Positions 12,518 to 38,219 are shown, numbered from the stretch's first letter. The stretch: 62,183 nucleotides of DNA from an uncultured Alphaproteobacteria bacterium (GCA_913053235.1 CAJXFT010000002.1:1-62183); one strand, 5' to 3'. Notes: generated from the sequence alone by a model not told the origin. Numbers and translations: made by a program.

Positions 12518-12547
12518 AGAAACGAAAGCAATGGAGGTAGAGGGACA

Positions 12548-15783: not shown

Positions 15784-15806
15784 CCAGAGCGCAAAGGATA
15801 GAGACA

Positions 15807-18678: not shown

Positions 18679-18714
18679 CATTTGTGAGCCGGGGCGGTGG
18701 AAGGAGAAGATGAG

Positions 18715-20045: not shown

Positions 20046-20090
20046 GCGCCCCCGCTCCTTGGTATAAGGCGGATTGAAGGGGGCGATCAG

Positions 20091-22837
20091 GTGGAGCAAA
20101 ACCGCACGCCGACACGCCGCAAGATCAGGACCTACTGCAATCAGTGCGGCAATGGCCCCGACCTGCTGACGGTCGAGACGTTGGATGGCGTGGCGACCAG
20201 GATCGAACCCGATTTCGCCGCTCATGGCGTGCATCCCGCCGACGGCAAGGTGTGCGTCAAAGCCTATGGCCTGGTGCAGAAGCTCTACAATCCGCATCGT
20301 GTGTTGACGCCCTTAAAGCGGACGAATCCGAAGAAAGGCATGAACGAGGAGCCGGGCTGGGTCGAGATCAGTTGGCAAGAAGCCCTCGATACCGTCGCCG
20401 ACAAGCTCAACGGCATCAGAAAGCGCGGCCTCAAGGACGAAAACGGCAACCCCAGATTCGCCTTCACGATCGGCTCGGCGGCGTCTCCGATGTGGTACAT
20501 CGGCTCGTTCCCGGCATTCATCCAGGCGTGGGGCGATGTCGACCGTTCGATCGGCTCGGGCACGACCAATAAATGCTACCACACCGAGCATATATTCGGT
20601 GAGCTTTGGCATCGCGGCTTCACCGTGTTGCCGGACACGCCGCGCAGCGAATACATCATCGGCTTCGGCTATAACGCCGACGGTGCGGCGGGCGGCGTCA
20701 TTGCCGCGCGCCGGCACGCCGACGCCCGCGCGCGCGGGGTCAAACGAATTCAGTTCGAGCCGCATCTCTCGGTCAGCGGCGCCTCCGCGACGGAGTGGCT
20801 CCCCATAAAGGCCAAGACCGATTCGGCGGTGCTCTACGCCATGCTGCATGTGCTTCTGCATGAGCATCCGCTGACCGACCTCGACGTCGATTTTCTCAAA
20901 AACCACACAGCGAGCCCCTACCTGATCGGGCCGAACGGTTTCTACCTGCGCGATCCCGAAACCCGAAAACCACTGATCTGGGATTTGGCCGGCGGGCAAG
21001 CCGTGCCGCATGACCAAGCGGCGGCTGATCCTGCTCTCGAAGGATGTTTCGAGGTCATCGATGCGATCGAAATCGGCGCCGATCACGAGCTGTGGACACA
21101 TGCGCGCGCCTCGGGGATGACCGGCTTCGAGGCGCTCAGGCGACATGTCGCCGATCGCTCGCCCGAATGGGCGGCGGGCGTTTCAGACATCCCGGCGCAC
21201 AAGATACGCCGTATCGCCAACGAGTTCCTGTCGCACGCCAGGATCGGCGAGACGGTCGAGATCGACGGCCACCTATTGCCCTTCCGGCCGGTGGCGATCG
21301 TGTTCGGAAAATCGGTGAACAATGGCTGGGGCGCCTATGAATGCATTTGGGCGCGCACCGTGTTGCAAACGCTCGTCGGCGCGCTCGAAGTTCCCGGCGG
21401 CATCATCGGCAGCCTCGTTCTGCTGTCGGGAGCGCACGGCTACGATCGGATGAACACCGTGATAGCGGGCGAGGACGGTTTCATGTTCTATCCGTTCAAC
21501 CCGACAACGAAGAATGAGTGGAATCCGAGGTCGGATTCTCGGCACGCGCACCTCACGCTGACGCCGATGGCGGGAGACGGCATCTACAGCCATAACATCG
21601 GCAGCACGGTCATCAGTTGGATGCGGCTGCAGGGCCGCGCCGCCGAGACCTGGCCGCGGCCGAACCCTCCCGATGTGTGGTTTCTCTATCGCTGCAACCC
21701 GATGAATTCGTTCTCGGAACTCACCAAGCTCGGGGAGTCGATTGCCCGCTTCCCGTTCACCGTCACCTTCTCCTACACGATGGATGAGACCAACCATTTT
21801 GCCGACATCGTTCTGCCCGAGGCGATGGATCTCGAAAGCTACCAATTGATCCCGCTCGGCGGCACCGGCTGGCTCGAAAGCCTGTGGAGCTCGAAGGGCT
21901 GGGTTCTGCGGCAACCGATCGTCGAGCCCAGGGGCGAGGCCAGGAACTTCAGCTGGATCAGCAACGAGCTGGCGCGCCGCACCGGTTTGCTCGAAGCCTA
22001 TAACGCCGCGATCAACGCCGGCGCATGCGGCGTTCCGCTCAAGGCGGAGGGCTATGACCACGCGCTCGATGTCGCCGAAGAGCATGATGAGAAAGCGGTC
22101 TGGGACCGGGTTTGCAAAGCCGCGTCCGCCAGCCTAACGGACGGCGAAGAGGTGCACGGCCTGTCCTGGTTCAAGGAGAATGGAAACCTCCTCAGGCCGA
22201 TGTCGACGCTCAAATGGTATCTGTTTCCCAAAATGGTGGAGACCGGACTGCGCTTCGAGCTTCCCTATCAGGAGCGATTCCTGCGCATCGGCAAACAACT
22301 GGCCAACCGGCTGCACGAGACCGGCGTTGAATGGTGGGACCGGCAACTGGCCGATTACGAAGCGATGCCCGAATGGAAAGACCTCGAGAAGCTTTGGGAC
22401 GATGCGTTGCAGCGAAACTATCAGGCGGCCGCCAAGGATTATCCGTTCTGGCTCCTCACCACGCGCAGCATGCAGCATGCCTGGGGCGCCACCGCGAGCA
22501 TTCAGTTGCTGGCCGAGGTCGGCAATAACCTCGCCGGCCAGGACGGCATCCTCGTCAACAGCATAAAAGCGGCCGAGTTGGGCATTCGCGACGGCGATGA
22601 GATCGAAGTCCGCTCGGCGGTCGGGGCGATGCGCGGCACCGCCCGGCTGCGCCACGGCGTGCGGCCCGACGTGGTGCTCATGATCGGCCAGTGGGGGCAT
22701 TGGAAGACCCCCTTCGCCAAGGACTTGAAGCGGCCGGGGCCGAACGACCTGATACCGATGAACATGGATCTGATCGACGGAATGGGATCCACCAACGAGA
22801 CCACAAAGGTGGCGATCAGCCTGGTCGAGGCGCGCCC

Positions 22838-22841
<4 letters not shown>
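20091..22841 (+). CDS. DMSO-reductase-family (bis-MGD) molybdopterin oxidoreductase catalytic subunit, no Tat signal (PadB-like architecture)
   Basis: 916 aa. GTG 20091 follows GAAGGGGG. The N-terminus MEQNRTPTRRKIRTYCNQCGNGPD goes straight into a degenerate Fe-S motif (C16-x2-C19 ... C55, with the usual third Cys replaced by Pro). Candidate Mo ligand region is SGTTNKCYHTEH. C-terminal molybdopterin-binding barrel ELGIRDGDEIEVRSAVGAMRGTARL. Confidence 0.85.
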
Positions 22842-23497
<656 letters not shown>

Positions 23498-23501
23498 CAG
23501 T

Positions 23502-24332
23502 GTGACAAACACCGGCCAGGTGCTTCAAGCCAATTGGGACTGGCGCGCGGCGGGCAACTTCATGTTCGGCGGCAGCGGTGGAAGCCTGTTGCTGATCGCC
23601 GGGTTTTCTTCGCTGCCCGACGTGCCGCATCCACTCGTCGCTGCCGTGGCGATGGCGCTGGTCGGATTGGGCCTCTTTCTGGTGTGGGCTGAAATCGGGC
23701 GTCCATGGCGCTTCCTGCACGTGTTTTTTCACCCCCGCACATCATGGATGACGCGCGAGTCTGGGGTTGCCGTCGCCTTCTTTGCCCTGGCCATCACCGG
23801 CGTCGTGCTCAGCCTGCCGGTCGTCGTCGCGGTGGCGGGGGTGATGGGTTTGCTCTTCGTCTATTGTCAGGCGCGCGTCCTCAAGGCGAGCACGGGCATT
23901 CCGGCCTGGCGCCAGCCGGCCATCGTTCCCCTGATCCTCGCCACCGGACTGACCGAGGGAGCGGCATTGTTGTTGCTGTTGCTGGCCGCCGTGCAGGAAG
24001 CGATTCCGTGGCTGGACTATATACTGTTGGGACTGATCGTGGTGCGCGCGGTGGCGGCGGCGTCCTATCTGCACGCTCTCGCGCGCGCCAATGCACCGGA
24101 GGCGACGATTTCGGTGCTCAAACGAACGGCGATCCCCTTTCTTATGGTTGGAAGCCTCATTCCACTGATCCTCATCGTCCTCGAAGTAAGTATGACGACC
24201 GAGGCCGATATAGCGATCATCGTCGCCGGCATATTGGCTCTTGTCAGCGGCTGGTATGTGAAATTCACCATCGTCACGCGCGCCGCTCACGTCCAGGGAT
24301 TTTCCCTCGGCGTGCCGGGGCCGGCCTCTTAG
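23502..24332 (+). CDS. Integral-membrane anchor subunit (DmsC/PadD-like, about 8 predicted TM helices)
   Basis: GTG 23502 lies 5 nt after the Fe-S subunit stop. Highly hydrophobic sequence, with WDWRAAGNFMFGGSGGSLLLIAG and successive hydrophobic helices. The start is uncertain; an internal Met is possible. Confidence 0.7.
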   Translation: MTNTGQVLQANWDWRAAGNFMFGGSGGSLLLIAGFSSLPDVPHPLVAAVAMALVGLGLFLVWAEIGRPWRFLHVFFHPRTSWMTRESGVAVAFFALAITGVVLSLPVVVAVAGVMGLLFVYCQARVLKASTGIPAWRQPAIVPLILATGLTEGAALLLLLLAAVQEAIPWLDYILLGLIVVRAVAAASYLHALARANAPEATISVLKRTAIPFLMVGSLIPLILIVLEVSMTTEADIAIIVAGILALVSGWYVKFTIVTRAAHVQGFSLGVPGPAS

Positions 24333-24349
24333 TCTCGGATCGCCGGCAG

Positions 24350-25285
24350 ATGGGGAATTGGCGCAATCTTACCGCCGGCATGGCGCGCCTGCCGCTGCTG
24401 CCCACCGCCATGCTGTTCGCCTGCGGCATCACCTGGGGCCTCAGCTTCTCGTTCAACAAAATCGCCATCACCTCCGGCATTCCCGTTATCGCCTATGTGT
24501 TTTGGCAGAGCCTCGGCGCCGGGCTCATTCTATTGATCCTCTCCTTCGCCACCGCCAACCGAATGAATCTGAGCTGGTCGCATCTCAAGCTCTATGGCGC
24601 TTCCGCGCTGTTCCAGTTCGTTCTGCCCTTTCTGGCGCTCAATTATGTCGCCGACCGCTTGCCCGCCGGCGTCGTCAGCCTGGGCCAGGCCCTGGTACCG
24701 GCACTGACCTTCGGCTTTGCCATGGCGTTTCGCATCGACCGCTACAGCATGCTGCGTTTCGCCGGGCTTTGCATCGGTCTCGCGGGCGTCCTTCTGGTCG
24801 TCCTGCCAAAAGCCAGCCTGCCCGATCCCGGCATGGTCGGCTGGGTGCTTATCGCCCTGATCGCGCCGCTCTGTTACGGCTTCGCCAATACGCTGGTGGC
24901 AATCATGCGCCCGCCCCAGTCGAATTCCATTCCCCTCGCCGCCGGGCTTCTGCTCGGCGCATCGACAATCCTCCTCTTGCTCATGGCGGCGACGGATAGC
25001 TGGTGGTTTTTCGATGCCGGCCTGAACGACGGCGCCTTGGCCCTGATCGGAGTCACCGTCGTAAACGTCATTTTCTGGTATCTGCTGTTCGAGATCATCC
25101 ATCTCGCCGGCCCGGTCTTCTTCGCCAGCTACAATTATATTTCGCCCCTGGCGGGCATCGGCTGGGCCGTCCTGATTTTGCACGAGCGGCACAGCGTATG
25201 GATATGGGCCGCTCTGGCGCTCATGTTCGCCGGCCTGTTCCTGGTCAACAGGCGAGCGAGGGCAGCGCCCCAGCAGCGTGCGTAG
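24350..25285 (+). CDS. DMT-superfamily (EamA-like) transporter
   Basis: The second half of ORF 23705-25285, taken from ATG 24350 (MGNWRNLTAGMARLPLL...). About 10 hydrophobic helices in two EamA-like halves. ATG 24380 is an alternative start. Confidence 0.8.
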   Translation: MGNWRNLTAGMARLPLLPTAMLFACGITWGLSFSFNKIAITSGIPVIAYVFWQSLGAGLILLILSFATANRMNLSWSHLKLYGASALFQFVLPFLALNYVADRLPAGVVSLGQALVPALTFGFAMAFRIDRYSMLRFAGLCIGLAGVLLVVLPKASLPDPGMVGWVLIALIAPLCYGFANTLVAIMRPPQSNSIPLAAGLLLGASTILLLLMAATDSWWFFDAGLNDGALALIGVTVVNVIFWYLLFEIIHLAGPVFFASYNYISPLAGIGWAVLILHERHSVWIWAALALMFAGLFLVNRRARAAPQQRA

Positions 25286-25409
25286 CAGGGCCCTGGCCGG
25301 TGCGCGCACCGTGTTTGTTGACTGTGCCGGCACAGAGGATAAGCTGTGTTCCAAACCAGCCTTACGACGTAAGCTGGCGACAACGATAACAAAATGGGAG
25401 GCGGGAGCG

Positions 25410-26279
25410 GTGAAACCGGCACCATTTGATTATGTCCGCGCCGACAGCGTCGAGGGCGCCTTGTCGGCCCTGGCCGAGCAACCCGAAGCGCGTGTGCTGG
25501 CGGGCGGGCAGAGCCTCATCGCGATGATGAATCTGCGCCTGCTCAAGCCGGGCTGTCTGATCGATATCAATCGGCTGTCGGAGCTCGATTATATTCGGGC
25601 CGAAGGCGATGAACTGGCGATCGGCGCCCTGACGCGCCACACCGCTGCCGCCACCTCGCCATTGGTTGCGGAACATTGTCCGCTCATGACCGCGGCCTAC
25701 GGCCATATCGCCAACCGGGCGGTGCGCAACCGGGGCACCGTCGGCGGCAATCTCTGCCATGCCGATCCGGCGTCGGAGAATCCGGCCGTCGCCATCGCCA
25801 GCGGCGCCACGCTTGTCCTCACAAGCCTCGACGGCGAGAGGCGCATCGCGGCCGAGGATTTTTTCCTCAGCCTCTACGAGACCGCCGCCGAACAGAATGA
25901 ATTGTTGACCGAAATCCGCATCCCCAAGGCGCCGGCGAATCAGGGCTGGTCTTTTCAGGAGGTGAGCACGCGCAAGGGCGATTTCGCGCTGGTCGGCGTC
26001 GCCGCCACGCTTGATTGCCCGAATGGCACCTGCTCGGATGCACGCGTTGTTGCCGTCGGCGTCGGCGAGCGCGCCGAGCGCCTCGGCGCCGCCGAAACGG
26101 CGATCAAGGGAGCGGTGGTCGACGAGGCCGGCCTGGCAGCGGCGGCGGCGGCGGCCCGGGACGCGGTCGACCCGCCGTCCGATTTCCATGCCGATTCGGA
26201 ATTTCGCCGCGATCTCGTATTCACCCTCACCAGGCGGGCGCTTGGCGAAGCCCATGGGCGCTGCGGAAAAGGAGGCTGA
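25410..26279 (+). CDS. FAD-binding medium subunit, CoxM-like (set 4)
   Basis: GTG 25410 follows GGGAGGCGGGAG. VKPAPFDYVRADSVEGAL..VLAGGQSLIAMMNLRL, VRNRGTVGGNLCHADPASE, and C-terminal DFHADSEFRRDL. Confidence 0.85.
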   Translation: MKPAPFDYVRADSVEGALSALAEQPEARVLAGGQSLIAMMNLRLLKPGCLIDINRLSELDYIRAEGDELAIGALTRHTAAATSPLVAEHCPLMTAAYGHIANRAVRNRGTVGGNLCHADPASENPAVAIASGATLVLTSLDGERRIAAEDFFLSLYETAAEQNELLTEIRIPKAPANQGWSFQEVSTRKGDFALVGVAATLDCPNGTCSDARVVAVGVGERAERLGAAETAIKGAVVDEAGLAAAAAAARDAVDPPSDFHADSEFRRDLVFTLTRRALGEAHGRCGKGG

Positions 26280-26283
26280 GGCG

Positions 26284-26766
26284 ATGGACAGTGTAAAAAT
26301 TGCGCTCACCGTGAACGGCCGGCGCCATGAACGCGAAGTCGAGCCGCGCCGGCTGCTGAGCGATTTTCTGCGCGAGGATCTTAGGCTCACCGGAACCCAT
26401 TTGGCATGCGAGCATGGTGTCTGCGGCTCCTGCACGATTCTCATGAACGGGCAAACCGCGCGCTCGTGCCTGACCTTCGCCGTCATGGCCGACGGCGCCG
26501 AGATCACCACCATCGAAGGGCTCGGCAGCGTCGAAAACATGCATCCGCTGCAAGCGGCATTCTGGGAAAAACACGGCCTGCAATGCGGCTTTTGCACACC
26601 CGGAATGTTGATGTCCGCGCTTGAGCTGTTGCGCGAAAATCCGGACGCCAGCAGCGAAGAAATACACCAGGCTCTGGCCGGCAATCTGTGCCGCTGCACC
26701 GGCTATCAAACCATCGTCGAGGCGGTCGAAGCGGCGGCCGAGACAATGCGGGGAGCAGAGCGATGA
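26284..26766 (+). CDS. (2Fe-2S)-binding small subunit, CoxS-like (set 4)
   Basis: ATG 26284 (MDSVKIALTVNGRRHE). ACEHGVCGSCTILMNG and QCGFCTPG...CRCTGY. Confidence 0.9.
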   Translation: MDSVKIALTVNGRRHEREVEPRRLLSDFLREDLRLTGTHLACEHGVCGSCTILMNGQTARSCLTFAVMADGAEITTIEGLGSVENMHPLQAAFWEKHGLQCGFCTPGMLMSALELLRENPDASSEEIHQALAGNLCRCTGYQTIVEAVEAAAETMRGAER

Positions 26767-29222
26767 CATTGGACGCCTATATCCCGCCAAGCCGGCAGAC
26801 CGAGAAGCCGCGCGAATCATACCAGTGGATCGGCAAGAGCATGAAGCGGGTCGAGGACCCGAGACTCCTGGTCGGCCGCGGTATCTTCGCCGACGACATC
26901 AATCTGCCCGAGATGGCCCATGCCGCCATTCTCAGAAGCCCGCACGCCCATGCCGTCATCAAGAGCATCGACAAAAGCAAAGCCGAGGCGCTGCCCGGCG
27001 TTCTTTGCGTCATGACCGGAGCGGATGCGGCGAAATATACCGGCCCGTTGCCGAGCTGGGCGAACCCGCCGGTGCATCAACATTGCATCGCCCAGGACAA
27101 GGTTCGCCATGTCGGCGAAGCCGTTGCCGCCGTGGTCGCCGAAACCCGTTACATCGCCGAGGACGCCTGCGATCTGATCGAAGTCGCGTATGAGCCCCTG
27201 CCGGCGGTGGTCGATCTCGAAGCGGCGCTGAGCTCGACCGGAGATGCCGTGCTGCATCCCTATCGCGGCGATACCAATGTCGCGCTCGCGCGCACCTTTA
27301 CGTTCGGTACCGTGGAGGAGGATTTCGCCAAGGCCGATCGGGTGATCGAGCGCCGCTTCCGCTGGCCGCGCTCGGGCGGCACGCCGATGGAAACCCACGG
27401 CGCGGTGGCGAGTTACGATCCGGGAACCGGCAAATTCACCATCCACGCCAACACCTCGATGTATAATTACTGCGGCTGGATGATCGCCGATTCGCTCGGC
27501 GTTCCGGCCCACAAGCTGAATATCATCCCCACCCTCGCCGGCGGCAGCTTCGGCGCCAAGCTGTTCAGCCACAAACCCTGCGTGCTGGCCGCGACGCTGG
27601 CGCGCGCCACCGACCGACCGGTCAAATTCATGGAAGACCGCATCGACAACACCACCGGCTGCGACGCGCACGGCTCCGATCGGGTCTATTATGCCAAGCT
27701 GGCGATCCAGGACGACGGCACCCTCTTAAGCCTGAAAACCCATATCATCGACGATTACGGCGCCTATTTTCAATTCGGCGTCGGCCAGCACGGCAACGCC
27801 CTCTCGCAATGTGTCGGCCCGTACCAGATCAACAGCGTCGAAGTCGCGCTCGAAGCGGTGCTGACCAACAAATGCCAGCAGGGCGCCTATCGCGGCTTCG
27901 GCTCCGAAGTCGCCAATTTCGTCATTGAGCGCCTGGTCGACGGCGCGGCGGCGGAACTCGGTATGGATGTGGTCGATATCCGGCGCAAGAATTTCATTAC
28001 GCCGGATCAGTTCCCCTATCTCATCCCGACCGGCAACATGTATGACAGCGGCAACTATCAGGCGGTGCTCGACGAAGCCCTCGAATTGTCAGAGTATGAA
28101 TCGTGGCGCGCGAAACAGGCGGAGATGCGCAAAGAGGGCCGCTATGTCGGCATCGGCGTCGCCACCTGCCAGGAACGCAGCGTCTTCAGCACCACCGAGT
28201 TTTGGATGTGGAATCTCGAACCCGGCGGCGAATGGACCAGTTCACCGGATGCCGTATCGCTCAAGATCGACCCCACCGGCAAGGCCTTCGTGACCCTGCA
28301 CTCGCCGTTTTGGGGCAACAGCCCCGAGACCGTCGCCGTGCAGGTCCTGGCCGAGCAATTGACGCTCGACCCGTCGAATATCGAGGTCACCTATTCCGAT
28401 TCGGACCATGGCTTCAATTCCACCGGGCCCGGCGGCAGCCGCTTCACCGTGATGGTGGCGGGCGCCGTGGTCGGCGCGGCGCATCAGCTCAAGAAAAAGC
28501 TGCTGCGCATCGCCGGCCATCTGATGGAAGCGGACACCGCCGACCTCGAGTTCAGAGATGGCGCGGTGTCGCTGAAGGGCGCGCCGGACAAGCGCCTGAC
28601 GATCGCCGAACTCGCCAACACGGCGCATTACTTCCGCCTCGACCTGCCCGAGGACATGGACCTGACGAGCGGCCTCGACGCGAGCTACGTCTATGACCAC
28701 CCGGTCACGACGCTGCCGGCCAAGGACAATTCGCACCTCGGCATCTTTTACCCCATCATGGGCCACATGTGTCATATCCCGGTCATCGAAGTCGATATCG
28801 AGACGGGTAAGATTTCCTTCCTCAATTACGCGGCGGTGCATGATTGCGGCACCATGGTCAATCCAATGACCCTGAAGGGCCACGTCCGAGGCGGCGTGGT
28901 GAACGGCATCGGCAGCGCGCTCATGGAGCACTACCATTACGACGAAACGGGCCAGCTGCAGAACAGCCTGTTCACCGACTATCTCGTGCCTTCGATAATG
29001 GAATCGCCTTCCGACATAAAGATCGGCCATGTCGTCACGCCCTCGCCGTTCACCGAATATGGCATCAAGGGCGGCGGTGAAGGCGGACGCATGGGCGCAC
29101 CACCGGCGCTCGCCGCCGCGATCGAAGACGCGCTTCGCCCGCTCGGAGTGACGATTGACGAATTGCCGCTCAGCCCAAACCGCTTAAGGCGGTTGATTCG
29201 CGAAGCTCAGGGCCGGTCTTAA
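26763..29222 (+). CDS. Xanthine-oxidase/CoxL-family molybdopterin-binding large subunit (set 4)
   Basis: ATG 26763 (MTLDAYIPPSRQ...), ATGA overlap with the small subunit. KRVEDPRLLVGRG, AILRSPHAHAVIKSID, loop GAYRGFGSEVA, and C-terminal YGIKGGGEGGRMGAPPALAAAIEDA. Confidence 0.9.
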   Translation: MTLDAYIPPSRQTEKPRESYQWIGKSMKRVEDPRLLVGRGIFADDINLPEMAHAAILRSPHAHAVIKSIDKSKAEALPGVLCVMTGADAAKYTGPLPSWANPPVHQHCIAQDKVRHVGEAVAAVVAETRYIAEDACDLIEVAYEPLPAVVDLEAALSSTGDAVLHPYRGDTNVALARTFTFGTVEEDFAKADRVIERRFRWPRSGGTPMETHGAVASYDPGTGKFTIHANTSMYNYCGWMIADSLGVPAHKLNIIPTLAGGSFGAKLFSHKPCVLAATLARATDRPVKFMEDRIDNTTGCDAHGSDRVYYAKLAIQDDGTLLSLKTHIIDDYGAYFQFGVGQHGNALSQCVGPYQINSVEVALEAVLTNKCQQGAYRGFGSEVANFVIERLVDGAAAELGMDVVDIRRKNFITPDQFPYLIPTGNMYDSGNYQAVLDEALELSEYESWRAKQAEMRKEGRYVGIGVATCQERSVFSTTEFWMWNLEPGGEWTSSPDAVSLKIDPTGKAFVTLHSPFWGNSPETVAVQVLAEQLTLDPSNIEVTYSDSDHGFNSTGPGGSRFTVMVAGAVVGAAHQLKKKLLRIAGHLMEADTADLEFRDGAVSLKGAPDKRLTIAELANTAHYFRLDLPEDMDLTSGLDASYVYDHPVTTLPAKDNSHLGIFYPIMGHMCHIPVIEVDIETGKISFLNYAAVHDCGTMVNPMTLKGHVRGGVVNGIGSALMEHYHYDETGQLQNSLFTDYLVPSIMESPSDIKIGHVVTPSPFTEYGIKGGGEGGRMGAPPALAAAIEDALRPLGVTIDELPLSPNRLRRLIREAQGRS

Positions 29223-29420: not shown

Positions 29421-30599
29421 ATGAAAATATTAAAGCTAATGAGTGTGATTGCCTTCGGAGCGGCGATCGCATTTGGAATACTGACGCAAGACACGACGTC
29501 GGCCCAAGCGGAAGATAATTGGTGGCCGGCAAAAGTACAGGTTTACAGCCCGTCCTGCACGGACGGCGATACCGCTTGCTGGGCCGTCGCCCAGGCGGCC
29601 GGTCTCGAGATCGTCGATTACGTGCCGCTGATGAAGGCGGACGCGAAACATCATATCTGCGTCTCGTTCCCCCATCTAAAGGATTCCTATTGGGTCGGGG
29701 CGGCGTATGGGATCATCGAGGAAGGCAAACGCCTGGGTCAGAAAATCACCCTGGTGGAAGCCGCCGGCTATGTGAACCTCGAAAAGCAGCTTGCACAAGT
29801 CGAAGACTGCATCGCCAACGGCGCCGACGCACTCGTGGTATCGGCGATCTCCGGTGACGGCAATGCCAAGCAGATCGACGAGATTCGCGCCAAAGGCATT
29901 CCGGTCATCGACCTGATCAACGGCGTCAACACCGAAGTCGATGCGAAATCCTTGATGAGCTACTACTCGATGGGCTATGGCTCCTGCAAGTGGGTGGCCG
30001 ACAAGCATCCCGCCGGCAGCGGCAAAGTGAAGATCGCCTGGTTCCCCGGACCTCCGGGAGCTGGTTGGTCGGTTGGCGGCAACGATGGCTGCAACGATGC
30101 CGTCAAGGGCAGCGATGTCGAGATCGTTCAAACCAAATGGGGCGATACCGGCAAGTCGGTCCAGCTCAAACTGGTCGAGGACGTGATCCAATCCCAGACT
30201 GTCGGAGACACGGTAGACCTCAACTATATCGTCGGCGTTGCTCCGGCGATCGAGGCCGCCATCGCGACCGTGCGAGAACTCGAACTGACGGATCAAATCA
30301 AGCTGGTATCCTATTATTACACTCCGGGCATGCACATGTTCATCGGCCGCGGATCCGTGGCAATGGCGCCGACCGATCAAATGATCCTTCAGACGCGCAT
30401 CTCCATTGACCAAGCGGTTCGGGCGCTCGAGGGCAAGGGCCCGGCAACGGGCGGACGCCCCGAGTACAACGATACCGGCCGCACGATCGAGCATGTGCAG
30501 CCGGTGATGTTCAACGTAACGCCCGAGAACATCGGGGAATTCGACACCAGCACCACGTTGGCGCCCAAGGGTTGGACACCCTCATTCACCGTTGATTAA
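29421..30599 (+). CDS. Periplasmic substrate-binding protein, TorT-family (Peripla_BP_4 type)
   Basis: 392 aa. Signal peptide MKILKLMSVIAFGAAIAFGILTQDTTSAQA. The blocks ICVSFPHLKDSYWVGAAYG, ITLVEAAGY, QVEDCIANGADALVV and MAPTDQMILQTRISIDQAVRALEG closely resemble E. coli TorT as I recall it (YPSLKDSYW, VLEAGGY, AASDQMVWQG). Confidence 0.8.
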   Translation: MKILKLMSVIAFGAAIAFGILTQDTTSAQAEDNWWPAKVQVYSPSCTDGDTACWAVAQAAGLEIVDYVPLMKADAKHHICVSFPHLKDSYWVGAAYGIIEEGKRLGQKITLVEAAGYVNLEKQLAQVEDCIANGADALVVSAISGDGNAKQIDEIRAKGIPVIDLINGVNTEVDAKSLMSYYSMGYGSCKWVADKHPAGSGKVKIAWFPGPPGAGWSVGGNDGCNDAVKGSDVEIVQTKWGDTGKSVQLKLVEDVIQSQTVGDTVDLNYIVGVAPAIEAAIATVRELELTDQIKLVSYYYTPGMHMFIGRGSVAMAPTDQMILQTRISIDQAVRALEGKGPATGGRPEYNDTGRTIEHVQPVMFNVTPENIGEFDTSTTLAPKGWTPSFTVD

Positions 30600-30656
30600 G
30601 GGCCGACGAGACAGCGACTTAGATAAGATAATAAGACTGACGAGGGTATAAATTAG

Positions 30657-32276
30657 GTGCCGCAAGCGTCAGTCGTTAACGGGACTGCGTCCCCGGAGCA
30701 TCCAAGCTCCGGGGACGTTATCCTGAAAATGGAAAACATCTCCAAGCAATTTCCGGGGACGCTGGCGCTCGACCGGGTGACCATGGACGTCCGCGCCGGC
30801 GAAGTCCATGTGCTGTTCGGCGAGAACGGCGCCGGCAAATCGACCATGATTCAAATAATCGCCGGGGTTTACCGGCAGACCTCGGGAACCATTCACTTCA
30901 AGGGAGAGCCGGTTTCGATTCACTCCGTACAGCATGCGCGCGGGCTGGGCATGAGCGCGGTCTTTCAGGAATTCTCGCTGGTGCCGGAGTTGAGCGTCGA
31001 AGACAATTTGTTTCTCGGCTCCGAACTGACGCGCGGCCCGATGCTGCGCAAGGCGACATTGCGCAAGCAAGCCAGAGAGACCCTTGACCGCCTGGGCTTC
31101 CCGTTAAAACCCAGCAAGATCGTCCTCTACCTTTCGCGCGCCGAACAGCAAATGGTCGAAATTGCCAAGGCGTTCCGCACCAAGCCGGCCATCATGATCT
31201 TCGACGAGCCGACCGCCTCGCTCACCGAGCGCGAAACGGAGCGGCTGTTTCAATTGATCGAACAATTGAAGACGGAAGGCATCGGGATCATCTATATCAC
31301 CCACCGAATGAACGAGATCAAGCGCATCGGCGATCGCATCACGGTGCTGCGCGACGGCAAGTTCATCGACACGATTCCGGTGGCGGAGGCGAGCGATCAA
31401 AAGCTCGTCGAATTGATGACCGGACGCGTCATCGATCAGATTTTTCCGGCGATAAAGAAGCACGCCGGTGACGAGTTGTTGAATATCGAAAACCTCAACA
31501 TCACCGGCGACAATGCGGTTCACAATGCCTCGATCCATGTGCGCCGGGGCGAAGTGGTGGGCCTCGCGGGCCTGGTAGGCTCGGGAAAATCGAGCATCGG
31601 GCGCGCCTGTTTCGGGCTTGAACATATTGTCGGCGGCAAGATCACCTATGACGGCGACGTTGTGTTTGACCGTGCGTCCCGCGTCAACAGGCTCGGCCCC
31701 CGGCGGATGTTGGATCGCGGTTTGTATTACCTTCCTTCCAACCGGCGCGCCGAGGGCCTGGTGATGTTGCAGAACGTGCGCGAGAATCTCTCGCTCGCGT
31801 CGCTTGGACTGCCGGCTTTCTCAAACAAGCTGTTTCTCAAGAAAAGGAGCGAGCGCGCCGAGGCCAAGAAGGTCGCCGACCGGCTCGACCTGATTCCGCC
31901 CAACATCGAGCGCGACCTCGAACATTTCTCGGGCGGCAATCAACAAAAGGTCATGGTCGGCAAGTGCCTGGTCAGGGATGTCAAGCTCTTCGTCTTCGAT
32001 GAACCAACCGTCGGCGTGGATGTCGGCGCGCGCGTCTCGATTTACGAGTTTATTCGGGATCTGTGCGAAGCGGGGGCGGGGATATTGCTGATTTCCTCGG
32101 ATCTGCCCGAGATCCTGCACCTCACCCACCGCACATATGTCATGTACCGCGGCGACATTCGTGCCGAACTCGACAAATCGGAAATTAACGAAGCCTCTGT
32201 ATTGAATCACTTCTTCGAAAAGGGCGACGAGATTACGGAACGCATCCAACACGAAAAATCGGGAGAGCCCTTATGA
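30657..32276 (+). CDS. Sugar-type ABC transporter ATP-binding protein (duplicated ABC domains, RbsA-like)
   Basis: 539 aa. GTG 30657, with ATG 30729 as an alternative start. Walker A GENGAGKST and GLVGSGKSS. Signatures LSRAEQQ and FSGGNQQKV. Walker B IMIFDEPT and LFVFDEPT. Confidence 0.9.
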   Translation: MPQASVVNGTASPEHPSSGDVILKMENISKQFPGTLALDRVTMDVRAGEVHVLFGENGAGKSTMIQIIAGVYRQTSGTIHFKGEPVSIHSVQHARGLGMSAVFQEFSLVPELSVEDNLFLGSELTRGPMLRKATLRKQARETLDRLGFPLKPSKIVLYLSRAEQQMVEIAKAFRTKPAIMIFDEPTASLTERETERLFQLIEQLKTEGIGIIYITHRMNEIKRIGDRITVLRDGKFIDTIPVAEASDQKLVELMTGRVIDQIFPAIKKHAGDELLNIENLNITGDNAVHNASIHVRRGEVVGLAGLVGSGKSSIGRACFGLEHIVGGKITYDGDVVFDRASRVNRLGPRRMLDRGLYYLPSNRRAEGLVMLQNVRENLSLASLGLPAFSNKLFLKKRSERAEAKKVADRLDLIPPNIERDLEHFSGGNQQKVMVGKCLVRDVKLFVFDEPTVGVDVGARVSIYEFIRDLCEAGAGILLISSDLPEILHLTHRTYVMYRGDIRAELDKSEINEASVLNHFFEKGDEITERIQHEKSGEPL

Positions 32277-33301
32277 CCGACGCCAGCCACCAATCGCAAG
32301 AAAGCCTGCTTGCAAAAATCGAGCAGAGGGCGGCTGTCGTTTTCGTCAGGGGGGGCGTGCTTCCGTGGTTTCTGATCCTGGCGATCCTGGTGTTCTGGCT
32401 TTCCACCGACAATTTCCTGTCGGGCAGAAATATCCTTACCATGCTGCGCCAGGCGACTTATCTGACCATGGTTTCGATGGCGCAGATGGTCGTTCTTCTG
32501 ACCGCCGGGCTGGACCTCTCGGTCGGTGTCATGTTCGCCATCACCTCGGTGATCTCGTCGATGGTGATGGTCGGCGTGTGGTCGGGCGAAGGCGCGGGCT
32601 GGGGCGCGATCGCTCTGGGATGCGCCGCCGGCATGGGCGCCGGCACGCTGGTCGGCGTCGGTAATGGCATCGGTGTCGCAATCTTTCGCGTGCCGCCCTT
32701 CATGATGACGCTTGCCATGTCGTCGATCGTCTTCGGTGTCGCCTTGACCATCACCGGTGGGACGCCGATCTACGGTATGCCGAGCGATTTCGCCGAAGTC
32801 TTCGGTTACGGCAAGTTCATTTCGGTCCCCGTTCCGATCTGGTTGACCATCGCCTTCATCATCCTGATGTACATATTTATCAATTGGAGCCGGATGGGAC
32901 GCTACCTCTATGCGCTCGGCGGCAATCTGAAAGCGTCCCAGCTTTCGGGCATCAACACCCGGCTCTACCTGTTCCTGGCATATGTGGTGTGCGCGGCGAT
33001 CACGACCTTCGCCGCGTTAATGCTGACGGCGCGGCTGGAAAGCGGCGAATCGAACATCGGCGCCAACTACCCGCTGCTGTCGATTTCGGCCTGTGTGATC
33101 GGCGGCGTCAGCCTATTTGGCGGTACCGGGCGGTTGCCCAACGTGGTGCTGGGCGCGATATTTATTATTTTGGTGCAAAACGGCATGAATTTATTACGCA
33201 TCAATTCTTACTTGCAAATGGTGGTGATCGGGTTATTGCTTATTCTCGCCGTTATCGGCGACAATTACCGGCAAAAGGTCATGCTGACACTACGCGACTG
33301 A
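32273..33301 (+). CDS. ABC transporter permease (RbsC/AraH-like, BPD_transp_2)
   Basis: 342 aa, about 9-10 TM helices. 4-nt overlap with the ATPase gene. Conserved TGGTPIYG / GGNLKASQLSGIN region. Confidence 0.9.
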   Translation: MTDASHQSQESLLAKIEQRAAVVFVRGGVLPWFLILAILVFWLSTDNFLSGRNILTMLRQATYLTMVSMAQMVVLLTAGLDLSVGVMFAITSVISSMVMVGVWSGEGAGWGAIALGCAAGMGAGTLVGVGNGIGVAIFRVPPFMMTLAMSSIVFGVALTITGGTPIYGMPSDFAEVFGYGKFISVPVPIWLTIAFIILMYIFINWSRMGRYLYALGGNLKASQLSGINTRLYLFLAYVVCAAITTFAALMLTARLESGESNIGANYPLLSISACVIGGVSLFGGTGRLPNVVLGAIFIILVQNGMNLLRINSYLQMVVIGLLLILAVIGDNYRQKVMLTLRD

Positions 33302-33395
33302 TGAAAAGATGATTTCGGTCATGATATAGTGCGACAGCGCGGACGTGACGCGCCGACGGGAGAGGACATCGCATACCAATTTGAGGGAGGCGGCT

Positions 33396-33821
33396 ATGAT
33401 ACCCAACATTCCCGAGAAAACCGGCATTCAAGAGAATCGCGGCCACACGCTAACCGACGACTTCATCACCCGAACCTACGTCCTGCCGCTGCTCACCGAT
33501 CCGGAATCCAAAGCCCGGCTCGTAGCGGAGCACAAGAACAATCCGATCGGCGTGCCGGGCAAGGCGGGAAAGGCGGCTGTCGGCCATAGCGAAGACCTGA
33601 TTCGGGTGATCGACAAGCTGCGGCGCCAGCCAATGCCCGGCAAATATGTGCGGGTGTGCGTAAATCCGCACGAGGGCTATTGCATCGGTATCGTATCGGG
33701 TGTGCGCGGCCAGCCGGTGGAAATACTGCGCGACGAGACCTATCCGAGCGAGGACGCGTGTGAACACGCAATTTTCGTGCGCCGGGTCGCCAATCTTTTG
33801 GCCGCCTACGGCTTCGACTAG
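33396..33821 (+). CDS. Small protein in the position and size of the N,N-dimethylformamidase small (alpha) subunit; paralog of 36324-36707
   Basis: ATG 33396 follows GAGGGAGG (MIPNIPEKTG...), 141 aa. Lies directly upstream of the DMFase-like large subunit. The C-terminal half (PGKYVRVCVNPHEGYCIGIV..PVEILRDETYPSEDACEHA) aligns with the downstream 127-aa protein. Confidence 0.5.
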   Translation: MIPNIPEKTGIQENRGHTLTDDFITRTYVLPLLTDPESKARLVAEHKNNPIGVPGKAGKAAVGHSEDLIRVIDKLRRQPMPGKYVRVCVNPHEGYCIGIVSGVRGQPVEILRDETYPSEDACEHAIFVRRVANLLAAYGFD

Positions 33822-33930
33822 GCGCCTTTGCCGCGGTCAAGCCGCGCCACGCCACTACGACTTATGAGACAAGCCAGTCGGCGCCGGGGGATGACCCGGT
33901 GCTGAACTGGAACATAAAGGGAGGTAAGTC

Positions 33931-36282
33931 ATGTTGCGGATTACTGGATACAGCGATCGCTATGCGTTATGCCCCGGCGAAGAGATCAGGTTCTACATCA
34001 ATTCCGAGCAGGGCGAGAGCTATCGCGCCGACATTGTTCGCATGATTCACGGAGACACCAATCCGGCCGGCCCGGGCTTCAAGGTGGAAGAACTCGACAC
34101 GCCGGTGAGCAAGGAATATGCCGGGCGCAATCAGATCATTCATGGCGGCTCCTACGCGGTGGTGCCACACCACCACCGGATGAACGTCGAGAGCTTCACC
34201 CTGCAGGCGTTTATTTTTCCAACCACGCCCGACAAGGGCGTCCAAGGCGTTTTGAGCAAATATGTCGGGACGGCGGGCTACGGCCTCTTTATCGACGAGA
34301 ACGCCAACCTGGCGTTGTGGATCGGCGACGGCAACGGCAAGGTCGAGAAGATCGCCAGCGGAAGCCCGCTGCTGCGCAAGGTGTGGTATCTCGCCGCCGC
34401 CTCCTACGATGCCGCGAGCGGCCAGGTGCGGCTCTATCAGGAGCCCGTCGTGACCTCGGCCAATGGCGGCCTGGGCATGGCGTTGCTGCACCCGGCCGAG
34501 GAGACCGCATCCGTTGTCGAGGGCCGCTCGGCCGTCGCACCAGGCGCCAACGATGCGCCCCTGGTAATGGCGGCGCGCACCGAGGTTGCAAAGTCCGGGC
34601 GCTCGATCTTCGGCGCCCACTTCAAAGAAGCGCGCAGCCCGATCGAGCTGCCCCAGCAGGCGGACGTCTACAACGGCAAGATCGATCGCCCGCGCCTCGC
34701 CGCCCGGGCGCTCGACAAGAGCGAGATCGACGCGCTGGCGCGCGGCTTCAAGACCTGCCCGGCGGCGCTCCGCCGGAGCGTTGTCGGGGCTTGGGACTTC
34801 CACGCCAACATCACCAACAACATCGCCTCGACGCAAATTATCGACGTCTCGCCGAGCGTGCTGCACGGCCACGTCGTCAATCTGCCGGCGCGCGGCATGA
34901 CCGGCTACAACTGGACCGGCGACGAGATCGTCTATCATCATGCGCCCGAGGAATATGGCGCCATCCATTTTCACGACGACGACATCGACGATGCGCGCTG
35001 GGAGGTGGATTTCAGCTTCACCGTGCCCAAGGGCACCAAGAGCGGCGCCTATGCGGCGCGGCTGCGCGTCGGCGGCGAGAGCTCGGCCGAGACGGAGGAT
35101 TTCATCACTTTCTTCGTGCGCCCGCCGCAGGGCACCGCGACCGCCAAGGTCGGCCTGATCATTCCGACCTCAAGCTATCTGGCCTATTCCAACGACAACC
35201 TGGCGACCAATTCCGTGGTCGCCGAGCTGCTCGCCGGCAAGGTGCCGATCATGCAGGCCTCCGATCTCTATCTCAACGAACACCGCGAATACGGCCTGTC
35301 GACCTATTCGCTGCATTCGGACGGCAGCGGGGTGTGCTATTCCTCACGTCTCAGGCCAATCCTCAACATGCGGCCCAAATATCGCCACTGGCTGTCGCCC
35401 TCGCTGTGGCAGCTCAACGGCGATCTGCATCTGACCGACTGGCTGGAGCAAAAGGGCATCGATTTTGACGTGCACACGGACGAGGAACTCGACCGCGAAG
35501 GGCTCGATCTGCTCAAGCGCTATCCCGTCGTGCTGACCGGCAGCCATCCGGAATATTCCTCGGAGAAGATGGTCGACGCCTACGAGGCCTATCAGCAGCA
35601 GGGCGGGCGCTGGCTCTATCTCGGCGCCGACGGCTTCTATTGGATCACCGAATACCATCCCGACAACAGCAACATCATCGAAGTGCGCAAGGGCGAGGCC
35701 GGGACGCGCGCCTGGACGGCGAATCCGGGCGAATACAACAACGCCTTCGACGGCAAGTATGGCGGCATGTGGCGCGCCCGCGGGCGTATTCCGAGCAAAG
35801 TGTGCGGCCTTACATTCACCGCCTACGGCTTCGACGTCTCGTCCTATTACCGGCGCGACACCGATAGTTTCCGCCCCGAATGCGAATGGATGTTCGAAGG
35901 TATCGGCGATGAAGAGATTATCGGCGATTTTGGCCTCGTCGGCGGCGGCGCCGCCGGGCTCGAGCTCGACCGCTACGATCTCGAATTCGGCACGCCGCAC
36001 AATGCCTATCTGCTGGCGCACTCCGAGGGCCACACCGATCTCATGCTGCAAGTCAACGAGGAGATTCATTTCAGCGTGCGCGGCTACTATGGCGGCGGCG
36101 ACGAGAACCCGATGATCCGGGCCGACATGATCTACTACAAGACGCCCAACGGCGGCGCGGTGTTCGCTCCCGGCTCGCTCGCCTGGTGCGGCAGCCTGTC
36201 GCACGACAATTACGACAACAATGTCTCGCGCCTCATGGAGAACGTCATCCGAGGCTTCCTGCGGGAGGGCCCGCTGCCATAG
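33931..36282 (+). CDS. N,N-dimethylformamidase large (beta) subunit-like amidohydrolase
   Basis: 783 aa. The blocks RITGYSDRYALCPGEEIRFYI, IVRMIHGDTNPAGPGFK, YGAIHFHDDDIDDARWEVDFSFTVPKG, FFVRPPQGTATAKVGLIIPTSSYLAYSN, YGLSTYSLHSDGSGVCYSSRLRPILNMRPKYRH, VVLTGSHPEYSS, GLVGGGAAGLELDRYDLEFGTP and SLSHDNYDNNVSRLMENV match my recollection of DmfA2-type proteins (about 760 aa). Contexts for the 2-Tyr-1-Glu iron site are present. Confidence 0.72.
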   Translation: MLRITGYSDRYALCPGEEIRFYINSEQGESYRADIVRMIHGDTNPAGPGFKVEELDTPVSKEYAGRNQIIHGGSYAVVPHHHRMNVESFTLQAFIFPTTPDKGVQGVLSKYVGTAGYGLFIDENANLALWIGDGNGKVEKIASGSPLLRKVWYLAAASYDAASGQVRLYQEPVVTSANGGLGMALLHPAEETASVVEGRSAVAPGANDAPLVMAARTEVAKSGRSIFGAHFKEARSPIELPQQADVYNGKIDRPRLAARALDKSEIDALARGFKTCPAALRRSVVGAWDFHANITNNIASTQIIDVSPSVLHGHVVNLPARGMTGYNWTGDEIVYHHAPEEYGAIHFHDDDIDDARWEVDFSFTVPKGTKSGAYAARLRVGGESSAETEDFITFFVRPPQGTATAKVGLIIPTSSYLAYSNDNLATNSVVAELLAGKVPIMQASDLYLNEHREYGLSTYSLHSDGSGVCYSSRLRPILNMRPKYRHWLSPSLWQLNGDLHLTDWLEQKGIDFDVHTDEELDREGLDLLKRYPVVLTGSHPEYSSEKMVDAYEAYQQQGGRWLYLGADGFYWITEYHPDNSNIIEVRKGEAGTRAWTANPGEYNNAFDGKYGGMWRARGRIPSKVCGLTFTAYGFDVSSYYRRDTDSFRPECEWMFEGIGDEEIIGDFGLVGGGAAGLELDRYDLEFGTPHNAYLLAHSEGHTDLMLQVNEEIHFSVRGYYGGGDENPMIRADMIYYKTPNGGAVFAPGSLAWCGSLSHDNYDNNVSRLMENVIRGFLREGPLP

Positions 36283-36323
36283 GAAAGGCGGCCAAGCGAA
36301 CGATAAGAGGCGAATGAGAGGAC

Positions 36324-36707
36324 ATGTCGGACAAAACGCGTAGCTCGCCGATGGCGCTTGCCAAGACGCCGCCCGGCAAGGCCATGATGCCGACCCGGGC
36401 GCAATCGGCGAGCGCGCTGGAGCAGGCGCTCTTGGGCGAACTCGACCGTGAAAAGCTCAGCGACCTCGCCAAGGTGCTGTTCACCTTGAACAATCGACGG
36501 CACGGCCCGATACCGGGCTTCTATGTCGTGGTGTGCACCAAGGCGGAGGAAGAGTGGTGCGTCGGCCAGCTCTGCGCCGACAGCGAAAAGCCGCTGATGT
36601 TGCTCGAGGACAGGCTCTACGATTCGCCTGAAGCCGCCCAAGCCGCCGCCGAACGCCTCAAGGCCGCGCATCCCGCTTCGGATCAGCCGGGCTATTCCAT
36701 ATTGTAG
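36324..36707 (+). CDS. Small protein, divergent paralog of the putative DMFase small subunit
   Basis: 127 aa. The segment LSDLAKVLFTLNNRRHGPIPGFYVVVCTKAEEEWCVGQLCADSEKPLMLLEDRLYDSPEAAQAAA aligns by eye with 33396-33821. Shared residues: RR, PG.YV.VC, C.G, P...L.D..Y.S..A. Confidence 0.5.
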   Translation: MSDKTRSSPMALAKTPPGKAMMPTRAQSASALEQALLGELDREKLSDLAKVLFTLNNRRHGPIPGFYVVVCTKAEEEWCVGQLCADSEKPLMLLEDRLYDSPEAAQAAAERLKAAHPASDQPGYSIL

Positions 36708-36721
36708 AAGGGAGACGTCAC

Positions 36722-37126
36722 ATGAGTACCAACGAGCAGTTCGAAAGCGTCGTCGACAATTATTACAACGGCATGTATCGGGGCGATCCGGAACTGATCC
36801 GCAAGGCGTTCCACCCCGAGGCCAGGCTCCAGGGCGTTATGGCGGGCCGATCCTTCTACGGTTTGACGCGGGACAACTTCTGTAAATTTGTCACCCTCAT
36901 GCCGACGCCGGCCGACAAGGACGATCCCCACGATGTCAAGTTCGAGGTCCTCGATCTGACCGGGGCGCAGGCGGCACTCAAAATAACCGACTATGTTTTC
37001 GGCGTTTGGTTTGTCGACTATCTCAGCCTGCTGAAAACCGAAGACGGCTGGAAGGTCGTCAACAAGACCTATTATGCCGACGAAATGCCGGAGGCTCCCG
37101 AGGCCGCCGCCAAATTGCTTGGCTGA
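36722..37126 (+). CDS. NTF2-like (SnoaL/lumazine-binding-like) family protein
   Basis: 134 aa. VVDNYYNGMYRGDPELIRKAFHPEARLQG...FVDYLSLLKTEDGWKVVNKTY is a typical cone-shaped alpha+beta NTF2-fold signature. Confidence 0.6.
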   Translation: MSTNEQFESVVDNYYNGMYRGDPELIRKAFHPEARLQGVMAGRSFYGLTRDNFCKFVTLMPTPADKDDPHDVKFEVLDLTGAQAALKITDYVFGVWFVDYLSLLKTEDGWKVVNKTYYADEMPEAPEAAAKLLG

Positions 37127-37176: not shown

Positions 37177-38190
37177 TCAGACGTGCGGCGCCACCTGCTC
37201 CATAAGGATCCGCATCGACTTCCGCACCAGTTCGCTCGGCATTCCGACGAACTGGATGTGGGCGACGAAATGGGTAATGCCGATCTCCTTGTACTCCTTC
37301 AGGGCCTCGATGCAGTGCTCAGGCCCGCCGCACACGAAGCGGTCCCTGACGATGTCGTCGAGCAGGTCGGTGCGATCGGGCGGGATGATGTTGCCCTCGT
37401 CGTCGACCAGGTGGCTCCAGGAGAGGTACTTGGCGAACTCCTCGCGCATGCCCTTGCCGGCCTCCTCCCAGGCCTTCTCGTCCGTGTCCGAAACGTAGAA
37501 CTCGCGCCAGATTCCGATCTCGGCGCGCTCGGGATCGCGGCCGGCCGTGGCATATTCCTCGTGAAAGGCCTTGGCGTTGCGGCGAATGATGGCCAGCGTC
37601 TGCTTGGGGTCGGCGAACCATCCGTCTCCCACCCGGCCGGCGAGGCGGACCGCGGGCTCGTTCTCTCCGGAGATCCAGATCGGCGGGTTCGGCTTCTGCA
37701 GCGGCTTCGGCCGCAAGGTGACGTCGCTGAGCTGCCAGAAGCGCCCGTCATAGTTCACATGGTCCTCGGTCCACAGCTTGCGGATGATCTCGGCGCCCTC
37801 CCGGGTTCGCGGCCGGCGTTCCTTGCGCTCGATGCCGAAGCCGGCGAACTCCTCCGCCCGGAACCCTTGGCCCATCGCGAAGTTGAGGCGGCCATTCGAG
37901 AGGATGTCGAAAACGGCGCCGTCCTCGGCGACGTGGATGGGATTGTAGCCGAGCGGAAACAGCAGAATCCCGGGGCCGATCCGGATCTTCTTGGTGTGCG
38001 CGGCGAGGAAGGAGCAGGCGACGAAGGGAGACGGCAGGATGCCGTTCTCCTCGAAATGCTGCGACGACAGCTGCACGGTGGTCATGCCGAACTCCTCGGC
38101 GAACTGAATCTCTTCGAGAGCGGCCGCGAATCCGGCCTGGAAAGGCCGCCCAGGTTGGCTTCCGATCGTGTACGAGACTCCGAATTCCAT
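37177..38190 (-). CDS. LLM-class (luciferase-like) flavin-dependent oxidoreductase (paralog 2)
   Basis: ATG 38190 lies 8 nt after AAGGAG. The ORF-track GTG 38193 is an alternative start. Collinear similarity to 9412-10425, e.g. NPPIWISGENEPAVRLAGRVGDGWFADP versus HPPIWLASKAEGAVRQAARNSDAWFADP, and FYVSDTDEKAWEEA versus AYVADTDEQAWEEA. Confidence 0.85.
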   Translation of the reverse strand: MEFGVSYTIGSQPGRPFQAGFAAALEEIQFAEEFGMTTVQLSSQHFEENGILPSPFVACSFLAAHTKKIRIGPGILLFPLGYNPIHVAEDGAVFDILSNGRLNFAMGQGFRAEEFAGFGIERKERRPRTREGAEIIRKLWTEDHVNYDGRFWQLSDVTLRPKPLQKPNPPIWISGENEPAVRLAGRVGDGWFADPKQTLAIIRRNAKAFHEEYATAGRDPERAEIGIWREFYVSDTDEKAWEEAGKGMREEFAKYLSWSHLVDDEGNIIPPDRTDLLDDIVRDRFVCGGPEHCIEALKEYKEIGITHFVAHIQFVGMPSELVRKSMRILMEQVAPHV

Positions 38191-38219
38191 CACTTCGTCT
38201 CCTTGCCCCGCCCATTGAG

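Follow-up and report, generated by a model that had tools for sequence, protein, structure and literature searches.

What does a second, divergent small-subunit gene do beside the genes of a dimethylformamidase (DMFase)-type enzyme? The DMFase known so far has two subunits and breaks down an industrial solvent; descriptions of its iron site and of both new folds come from one Paracoccus enzyme. The question is raised by DNA of an uncultured Alphaproteobacteria bacterium (GCA_913053235.1 CAJXFT010000002.1:1-62183). The whole analysed stretch of 62,183 nucleotides (nt) is referred to here as the window, and the span under study, 33396-37126, holds four plus-strand genes in a row with short gaps, encoding a first small protein (small1), a large catalytic subunit (large), a second small protein (small2) and an NTF2-like protein. 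The explanation that we favour, with somewhat better than even confidence, is that the region would encode a three-component DMFase-family amidase in which small2 is a permanent extra subunit held at a new site.

A first-pass annotation of this DNA had listed proteins of 141, 783, 127 and 134 amino acids (aa), closely spaced on one strand, and open reading frames (ORFs) of this order and size are indeed present. The small1 gene (33396..33821, plus strand) encodes a 141-aa DMFase alpha-type small subunit, the predicted DmfA1 orthologue. Its ATG start is codon 18 of an ORF that opens with GTG at 33345, and public assemblies call the same 141-aa gene. It is followed by the gene for the large catalytic subunit (33931..36282, plus strand), a 783-aa protein with predicted Ig-like, LamG/pentraxin and DMFA2_C domains and a Tyr/Tyr/Glu iron site, and then by small2 (36324..36707, plus strand), which encodes a 127-aa divergent small-subunit paralogue, the proposed third component. 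The same four genes have been called publicly on identical contigs from marine metagenomes and from two metagenome-assembled genomes (MAGs). All four have Shine-Dalgarno-like purine runs 3-8 nt 5' of the start codon (GGAGG 6 nt 5' of the ATG in small1) and a high GC content at third codon positions (GC3, 0.74-0.83), as in real genes, within sequence of roughly 62 % GC. Scans for promoter-like sites (6, versus 3.4 ± 1.7 in shuffled sequence) and terminator-like sites (8, versus 9.0 ± 3.2) gave counts at or near expectation; one of the promoter-like sites lies at 33301-33330, 5' of small1.

The large protein matches the Pfam family DMFA2_C (E 8.6e-94, 315 bits against a cut-off of 27), also contains a Laminin_G_3 LamG-type domain, and aligns end to end over residues 3-783 with residues 5-760 of the Paracoccus DMFase 6lvb_A (E 1.1e-187). 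In the Paracoccus enzyme, Fe(III) is bound by Y399, Y440 and E521, H519 is essential, and F693 enters the pocket from the neighbouring subunit (PMC7686228). Three motifs had been singled out in the first-pass annotation as possible sources of the metal ligands, and the alignment places them correctly: Y419 (SYLAYSN), Y459 (LSTYS) and E541 (GSHPEYSS) correspond to Y399, Y440 and E521, H539 to the catalytic H519, and F714 to F693 on the loop contributed by the neighbouring subunit. An alignment of eight diverse homologues shows no variation at Y419, Y459, E541 or H539. Together, these comparisons establish the 783-aa protein as a predicted DMFase-type large subunit with conserved catalytic residues. 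One position differs: Asn547, which a figure legend names together with His519 near the active site (PMC7686228), is Asp567 in the window protein. This position is Asp in the window, loci L005 and L007 and plasmid pAMI5, and Asn in pAMI2, L006 and L009. The substitution was considered as a marker of the clade described below and ruled out, since either residue is found both within the small2-bearing clade and beyond it.

The DMFase large subunit is inactive alone; the small subunit stabilises it and lines the substrate entrance, and its two long N-terminal helices wedge between large subunits and hold domain II (PMC7686228). Small1 is the candidate for this role. Its sole match in the PDB by sequence is 6lvb_B (E 0.0023), and Foldseek places its AlphaFold2 (AF2) model (predicted local distance difference test score, pLDDT, of 82) on 6lvb_B/6lvv_B with a template modelling (TM) score of 0.70-0.80, a probability of 1.00 and an E value of about 3e-6. 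A precomputed annotation assigns it to Pfam PF26354 (DMF_alpha). The C-terminal half of the model comprises helix 66-76, strands 84-90, 94-99 and 109-116, and helix 119-137, and the small1 family has an invariant Glu-His pair (E123/H124). The modelling establishes a predicted DMFase small-subunit fold for small1, and its earlier designation as a DmfA1-type subunit holds on sequence, on fold (TM 0.72-0.80) and on DMF_alpha membership.

The case of small2 is less direct. Small1 and small2 are 28 % identical over 104 residues by BLASTP (E 5e-11), and profiles of the two families align over 99 columns with a probability of 96.8 % and an E value of 3e-10 in hhalign, so that a similarity at first seen by eye is significant in a proper alignment. 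These comparisons establish small2, at the sequence level, as a true, divergent paralogue of small1. The suggestion that both small proteins align with DmfA1 stands for small1; for small2, a sequence search of the PDB found nothing beyond a chance match to cardosin (E 0.31), and the support comes from a precomputed DMF_alpha annotation that is flagged as weak in the window protein and is unflagged in some orthologues. A local copy of Pfam that does not contain the PF26354 model gave no matches for small2. In the AF2 monomer model (pLDDT 73, with residues 1-21 below pLDDT 50), the elements are helices 31-37 and 42-55, strands 62-73, 77-84 and 91-99, and helix 102-115. This helix-three-strand-helix order matches only the C-terminal half of the small1 model; the two long N-terminal helices of small1 are missing, as is the invariant E123-H124 motif. 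The N-terminal arm of small2 is instead proline-rich and modelled at low confidence.

Is this paralogue a local peculiarity? We scanned one genome per species for relatives of the large subunit, found 493 and kept the best 80 (72-91 % identical to the window's protein), on which the locus counts given here rest, and ran hidden Markov models built for the small1 and small2 families on every ORF of the kept loci. Carriers include Pelagibacter (SAR11), Pseudothioglobus/Thioglobus, Arenicellales, Njordibacter and many alpha- and gammaproteobacterial MAGs. Both small genes are present in all 65 loci with enough flank on both sides, and the few loci that are missing one are cut by a contig end. Among 72 complete triplets, 51 have the order small1-large-small2 and 21 the order large-small2-small1. 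Small2 lies directly 3' of large in 72 of 72 (the median gap is 25 nt, and in 17 cases stop and start codons overlap), and the triplet is kept in unrelated neighbourhoods beside different transporters. Pairwise distances of both small proteins follow those of the large subunit (r 0.88 for small2 and 0.85 for small1; Mantel p 0.001). Small2 thus strictly co-occurs and co-diverges with large. The second divergent small protein seen in the window is part of a fixed gene set of a whole clade.

This conservation bears on one alternative, that small2 is a chance ORF or a decaying duplicate without function, as the lack of a local Pfam match or of a PDB sequence match might suggest. We searched the small2 profile against 1.84 billion representatives and recovered 82 family representatives at E below 1e-3. 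These, the 72 triplets spread across Alpha- and Gammaproteobacteria, a GC3 of 0.82 and a ribosome-binding site all speak against a non-functional ORF. The gene is under purifying selection, to judge from its median dN/dS (ratio of nonsynonymous to synonymous substitution rates) of about 0.35. It is also transcribed: in four metatranscriptomes, from marine and hydrothermal-vent sources, RNA contigs 95-100 % identical to the region, with DNA carry-over possible, cover the gene for the transporter binding protein 5' of small1, small1 itself, the small1-large spacer, parts of large, and small2. A functionless small2 is scarcely credible and is effectively excluded by its conservation.

The same counts weigh on a second alternative, in which small1 and small2 would compete for one site on the large subunit and give isoenzymes of different specificity or regulation. 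The two proteins are paralogues with the same core topology, and in the solved enzyme the small subunit forms part of the lining of the substrate entrance. Optional genes should occasionally vanish, however, and neither has been lost from the 65 informative loci, which argues for an obligatory third component over optional alternative assemblies. Without the N-terminal helices that in the solved enzyme sit as a wedge between large subunits and keep domain II in place, small2 is unlikely to replace small1; it also lacks the invariant E123-H124 motif, and the clade-specific insertions in the large subunit described below suggest an extra site rather than a shared one. We regard competing partners as improbable. 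Of the roles that the first-pass annotation had offered for a second small subunit, alternative assemblies are thus disfavoured, and a chaperone or regulator persists as a rival, discussed below.

A second subclade, with large subunits about 58 % identical to the window's, also has the order small1-large-small2, often in tandem with a triplet of the first, and includes plasmid p1 of the cultured Aminobacter niigataensis DMFA1. Two full triplets, one of each subclade, lie side by side in tandem in L006/L069, L022, L035, L044, L060 and L077, and divergently in L042. The paired large subunits score about 1400-1470 and 1050-1080 bits, respectively, against the window protein, and therefore two enzymes of different specificity are suggested. 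In Aminobacter niigataensis DMFA1 (L009, NZ_CP132959.1 11017-14345), the subclade-2 triplet is carried on a conjugative plasmid and adjoins an ABC (ATP-binding cassette) transporter with branched-chain-type permeases. The strain name suggests isolation on DMF (dimethylformamide), and no homologue more than 60 % identical to the pAMI2 large subunit was found on any Aminobacter plasmid record in the collection. This strain, with its small2 homologue at L009 7391-7840, would be a tractable carrier for work on small2.

Outside the clade, the small2 profile has no match at the seven loci examined from other DMFase-family lineages (pAMI2, Methylobacterium DM1, pAMI5, Rhodococcus, Mycobacterium, Halalkalicoccus and Agrobacterium pAt). 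A small1-type gene or domain lies 5' of the large subunit in all seven, and the genes of P. aminophilus pAMI2 are annotated as dmfA1 and DMFase subunit beta. A neighbour-joining tree groups the small2-bearing large subunits in one clade, divided into two subclades, and this single clade therefore fits a single duplication of the small-subunit gene. The large subunits of the clade carry specific insertions at about 224-241 (in the LamG-like domain), 381-386 and 719-724 (beside the F714 loop). None of the three is present in four of the five aligned homologues without small2; the fifth, pAMI5, carries shorter, unrelated inserts at two of these positions. The correlation between the insertions and small2 is suggestive of a new docking surface.

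One of these other loci deserves separate mention. On the Agrobacterium tumefaciens pAt plasmid (L092 1278-2933), a LivM-like ABC permease carries a DMF_alpha domain (residues 466-551, 56.6 bits) as a C-terminal fusion, directly 5' of the large subunit, so that enzyme family and importer are physically joined. Mis-naming is widespread among small-subunit homologues, which are labelled 'inner-membrane translocator' or 'branched-chain amino acid transport system permease' (also L093 2413-2955), and the Agrobacterium fusion probably seeded this wrong name.

On this basis, we hypothesize that the large subunit is a hydrolase that would use a mononuclear Fe(III), with Tyr419, Tyr459 and Glu541 as ligands and His539 as an assisting residue, to cleave a small N-substituted amide, and that small1 would act as the classical alpha subunit, stabilising large and helping to form the substrate entrance. 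Small2 would have arisen by duplication of the small-subunit gene in the ancestor of the clade. It may have kept the helix-three-strand-helix core that packs on large, lost the two N-terminal helices and gained the proline-rich N-terminal arm. It would then occupy a second site on the large subunit, perhaps formed by the clade-specific insertions, to give an alpha/alpha'/beta enzyme.

Several observations weigh against small2 being a permanent subunit. All small2-bearing large subunits fall in one clade, so the correlation with the insertions amounts to effectively one evolutionary event. Foldseek with the small2 monomer gave no match at E below 1e-3; its best match to a DMFase small subunit, 6lvv_B, stood at rank 3 (E 0.18, probability 0.75, TM 0.36), and because this match is weak, the fold argument rests on profiles and on the order of secondary-structure elements. 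The junction between large and small2 is spanned by no RNA contig from the four metatranscriptomes. No natural fusion of small2 to large or to small1 occurs among the 82 family representatives: real matches to the profile are stand-alone proteins of 55-231 aa. Two longer matches were seen, of which P0250 was left uninspected and P0225 proved to be a repetitive protein with a composition-driven match. Small2 is also the least conserved component (mean pairwise identity 0.51, versus 0.62 for small1 and 0.78 for large), and its variable tails would suit an accessory factor as well.

An accessory role of this kind is the content of another rival, in which small2 would be a dedicated maturation or assembly factor, inserting iron or folding the large subunit, that acts transiently and stays outside the mature enzyme. 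Strict genetic linkage is equally expected of a dedicated chaperone, and the faster evolution of small2 relative to small1, its low-confidence N-terminus and its variable tails are all in keeping with one. Loss of iron disorders the interface between large and small subunits in the solved enzyme (PMC7686228), which suggests that metal loading and small-subunit docking are coupled. Set against this, small2 has no metal-binding motif, and its cysteines C71 and C84 in the window protein are not invariant in the family. The published description of the enzyme of Paracoccus sp. strain DMF gives two polypeptides (alpha2beta2) and mentions no third factor, and a small2 gene is missing from the pAMI2 and Methylobacterium DM1 loci. 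Small2 moreover keeps the core that in its paralogue small1 contacts domain III. We consider a maturation factor unlikely, though it deserves to be taken seriously beside a permanent third subunit.

The neighbourhoods of the triplet raise a further possibility, that small2 is an adaptor or regulator that ties the enzyme to the membrane, to flotillin microdomains or to an uptake system, or that controls its activity. The triplet lies 3' of a flotillin gene in 32 of the 80 loci, adjoins a sodium:solute symporter in 26 and has a rhodopsin gene nearby in 17. Flotillin also lies 5' of the Aminobacter triplet, some small2 proteins (P0040-P0044) end in long lysine-rich tails, and the N-terminal arm is proline-rich and poorly modelled. 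Yet the window and many other loci keep small2 with no flotillin nearby, the basic tails are confined to a few lineages, and small2 co-diverges with large and not with any neighbour. An adaptor or regulator is therefore doubtful in our estimation, considerably more so than a role in maturation. The flotillin gene of the Aminobacter plasmid is directly 5' of the triplet (L009 2727-4487).

Which substrate would a three-component amidase act on? Directly 5' of small1, the window encodes an ABC importer (29421-33301), assigned by Pfam/NCBIfam and composed of a TorT-like CUT2-family binding protein (29421-30599), a double ABC ATPase (30657-32276) and a permease (32273-33301), all on the plus strand. 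It matches PDB 4yhs (E 2e-89) and TorT 3o1h (E 5e-45), and RNA contig depth is highest at the binding-protein gene. TorT binds trimethylamine N-oxide, which is close to DMF in size and shape; we take this as a lead only. The importer is probably the uptake system for the amidase substrate. A TorT-like binding protein lies beside the triplet in three other loci as well (L014, L056 and L066), symporters are linked in 26 loci, and PhnD-like binding proteins in 12. The substrate would enter through a linked importer, which in the window is the TorT-like ABC system and in other loci a sodium:solute symporter or a different ABC system. Because the linked importers vary, a small polar amide is suggested, and the substrate is probably of this kind and not necessarily DMF.

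A more ambitious version of the three-component explanation extends it to the whole clade as an obligate alpha/alpha'/beta iron amidase, in which alpha' would dock on the insertions and reshape the tunnel for a natural seawater amide. We hold this at rather less than even. If it is true, the two-subunit DMFase that degrades a xenobiotic would represent just a single branch within a larger natural amidase family.

The closest characterised system is DmfA1/DmfA2 (EC 3.5.1.56; 6lvb, pAMI2 and Methylobacterium sp. DM1), which hydrolyses DMF to dimethylamine and formate. The window shares with it the three-domain build of the large subunit, the Tyr/Tyr/Glu iron ligands and catalytic His, F714 in place of F693, and an adjacent gene for a small subunit with the fold of the ~15 kDa alpha subunit. 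It differs in that its large subunit is only 43 % identical to that of pAMI2 and belongs to a separate clade, which bears out the earlier caution that the substrate need not be DMF. It differs further in having a third, paralogous small gene, and so departs at the gene level from the two-component arrangement; in the three extra insertions and Asp567 for Asn547; and in having a TorT-like ABC importer where DmfA1/DmfA2 loci have a LuxR-type dmfR. Because the two-component arrangement does not hold at the gene level and the clade is separate, the locus should be called a predicted DMFase-family amidase and not a DMFase. The next-best solved relative is N-acetyl-(R)-beta-phenylalanine acylase (8huy/8i59/8i5a), whose homology extends along the entire large subunit (E 2.2e-130); the family therefore hydrolyses amides other than DMF as well. 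Unlike the window enzyme, its entries name one polypeptide (chains A and B) and no small subunit, and it is more distant than DMFase.

A DMFase gene has also been noted in the flotillin-associated rhodopsin (FAR) cluster of Pelagibacterales, HIMB59 and Pseudothioglobus (PMC10308929), and it probably belongs to the same clade. Pelagibacter and Pseudothioglobus loci in our set have large subunits 73-74 % identical to the window's, both small genes, and flotillin and rhodopsin genes 5'; the window triplet, in contrast, adjoins neither flotillin nor rhodopsin. The published cluster lists one DMFase gene and an 'inner membrane translocator', with the small subunits undescribed (PMC10308929), and the latter is probably a mis-named small subunit. 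A genomic survey of DMFase found the small-subunit gene in only 41 genomes, in single copy in each. A third gene or subunit of DMFase is not described in the open-access papers and preprints that we searched. The three-gene arrangement is thus new to the searched literature, and the large and first small subunits belong to a known family.

The window belongs to a far larger and highly conserved clade that is found in some of the most abundant ocean bacteria. DmfA proteins of alpha- and gammaproteobacterial origin are reported from a Pacific Ocean metaproteome (PMC9477243), a study that does not show their clade membership. Annotation pipelines miss one of the small subunits and mis-name the other. 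Because the clade always encodes the second small protein, expression of 'dmfA1A2' alone from these organisms may yield an inactive or atypical enzyme. With the three-gene set defined, the natural substrate and its role in marine nitrogen and one-carbon cycling become testable.

The fourth gene of the span is of a different kind. It encodes a 134-aa NTF2-like/Lumazine_bd_2 protein (36722..37126, plus strand) that matches Pfam Lumazine_bd_2 (PF12893) with 90.6 bits (cut-off 22.1) over profile positions 3-116 of 116, and PDB 3blz, an NTF2-like protein (E 5.8e-7). The gene occurs only in the near-identical loci L001-L004 and is absent from L005-L091, even where the large subunit is 90-91 % identical. 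The first-pass annotation had included it in the grouping; it is a lineage-specific add-on outside the conserved module, missing from all other lineages examined, and was ruled out as a fourth member. It may be co-transcribed with small2, because RNA contigs span the junction between them (36444-36737).

A few minor features complete the locus. At the 5' end of small1 (33390-33438), short contigs from two runs contain a 49-nt joint at which the sequence goes back on itself, probably an assembly artefact of very short contigs. A luciferase-like (LLM) oxidoreductase gene (37177-38193, minus strand) converges on the NTF2-like gene from its 3' side and is conserved in the near-identical loci alone; in L006, L052, L072 and L084, weaker LLM matches (65-104 bits) occur at a distance of several kb from the triplet. 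A dense block of redox genes (9412-29222) lies 5' of the importer and encodes a luciferase-like oxidoreductase, a MoxR/CoxD-like AAA protein, a CoxE-like VWA protein, an EamA transporter, a DMSO-reductase-family molybdoenzyme with 4Fe-4S and NrfD-like partners, and three sets of CoxL/M/S-like molybdenum-flavin-FeS hydroxylase genes. In one of these sets (25278-29222), the scans show only the flavoprotein and the large subunit; in L001, a Fer2 small subunit is encoded just 5' of the large-subunit gene.

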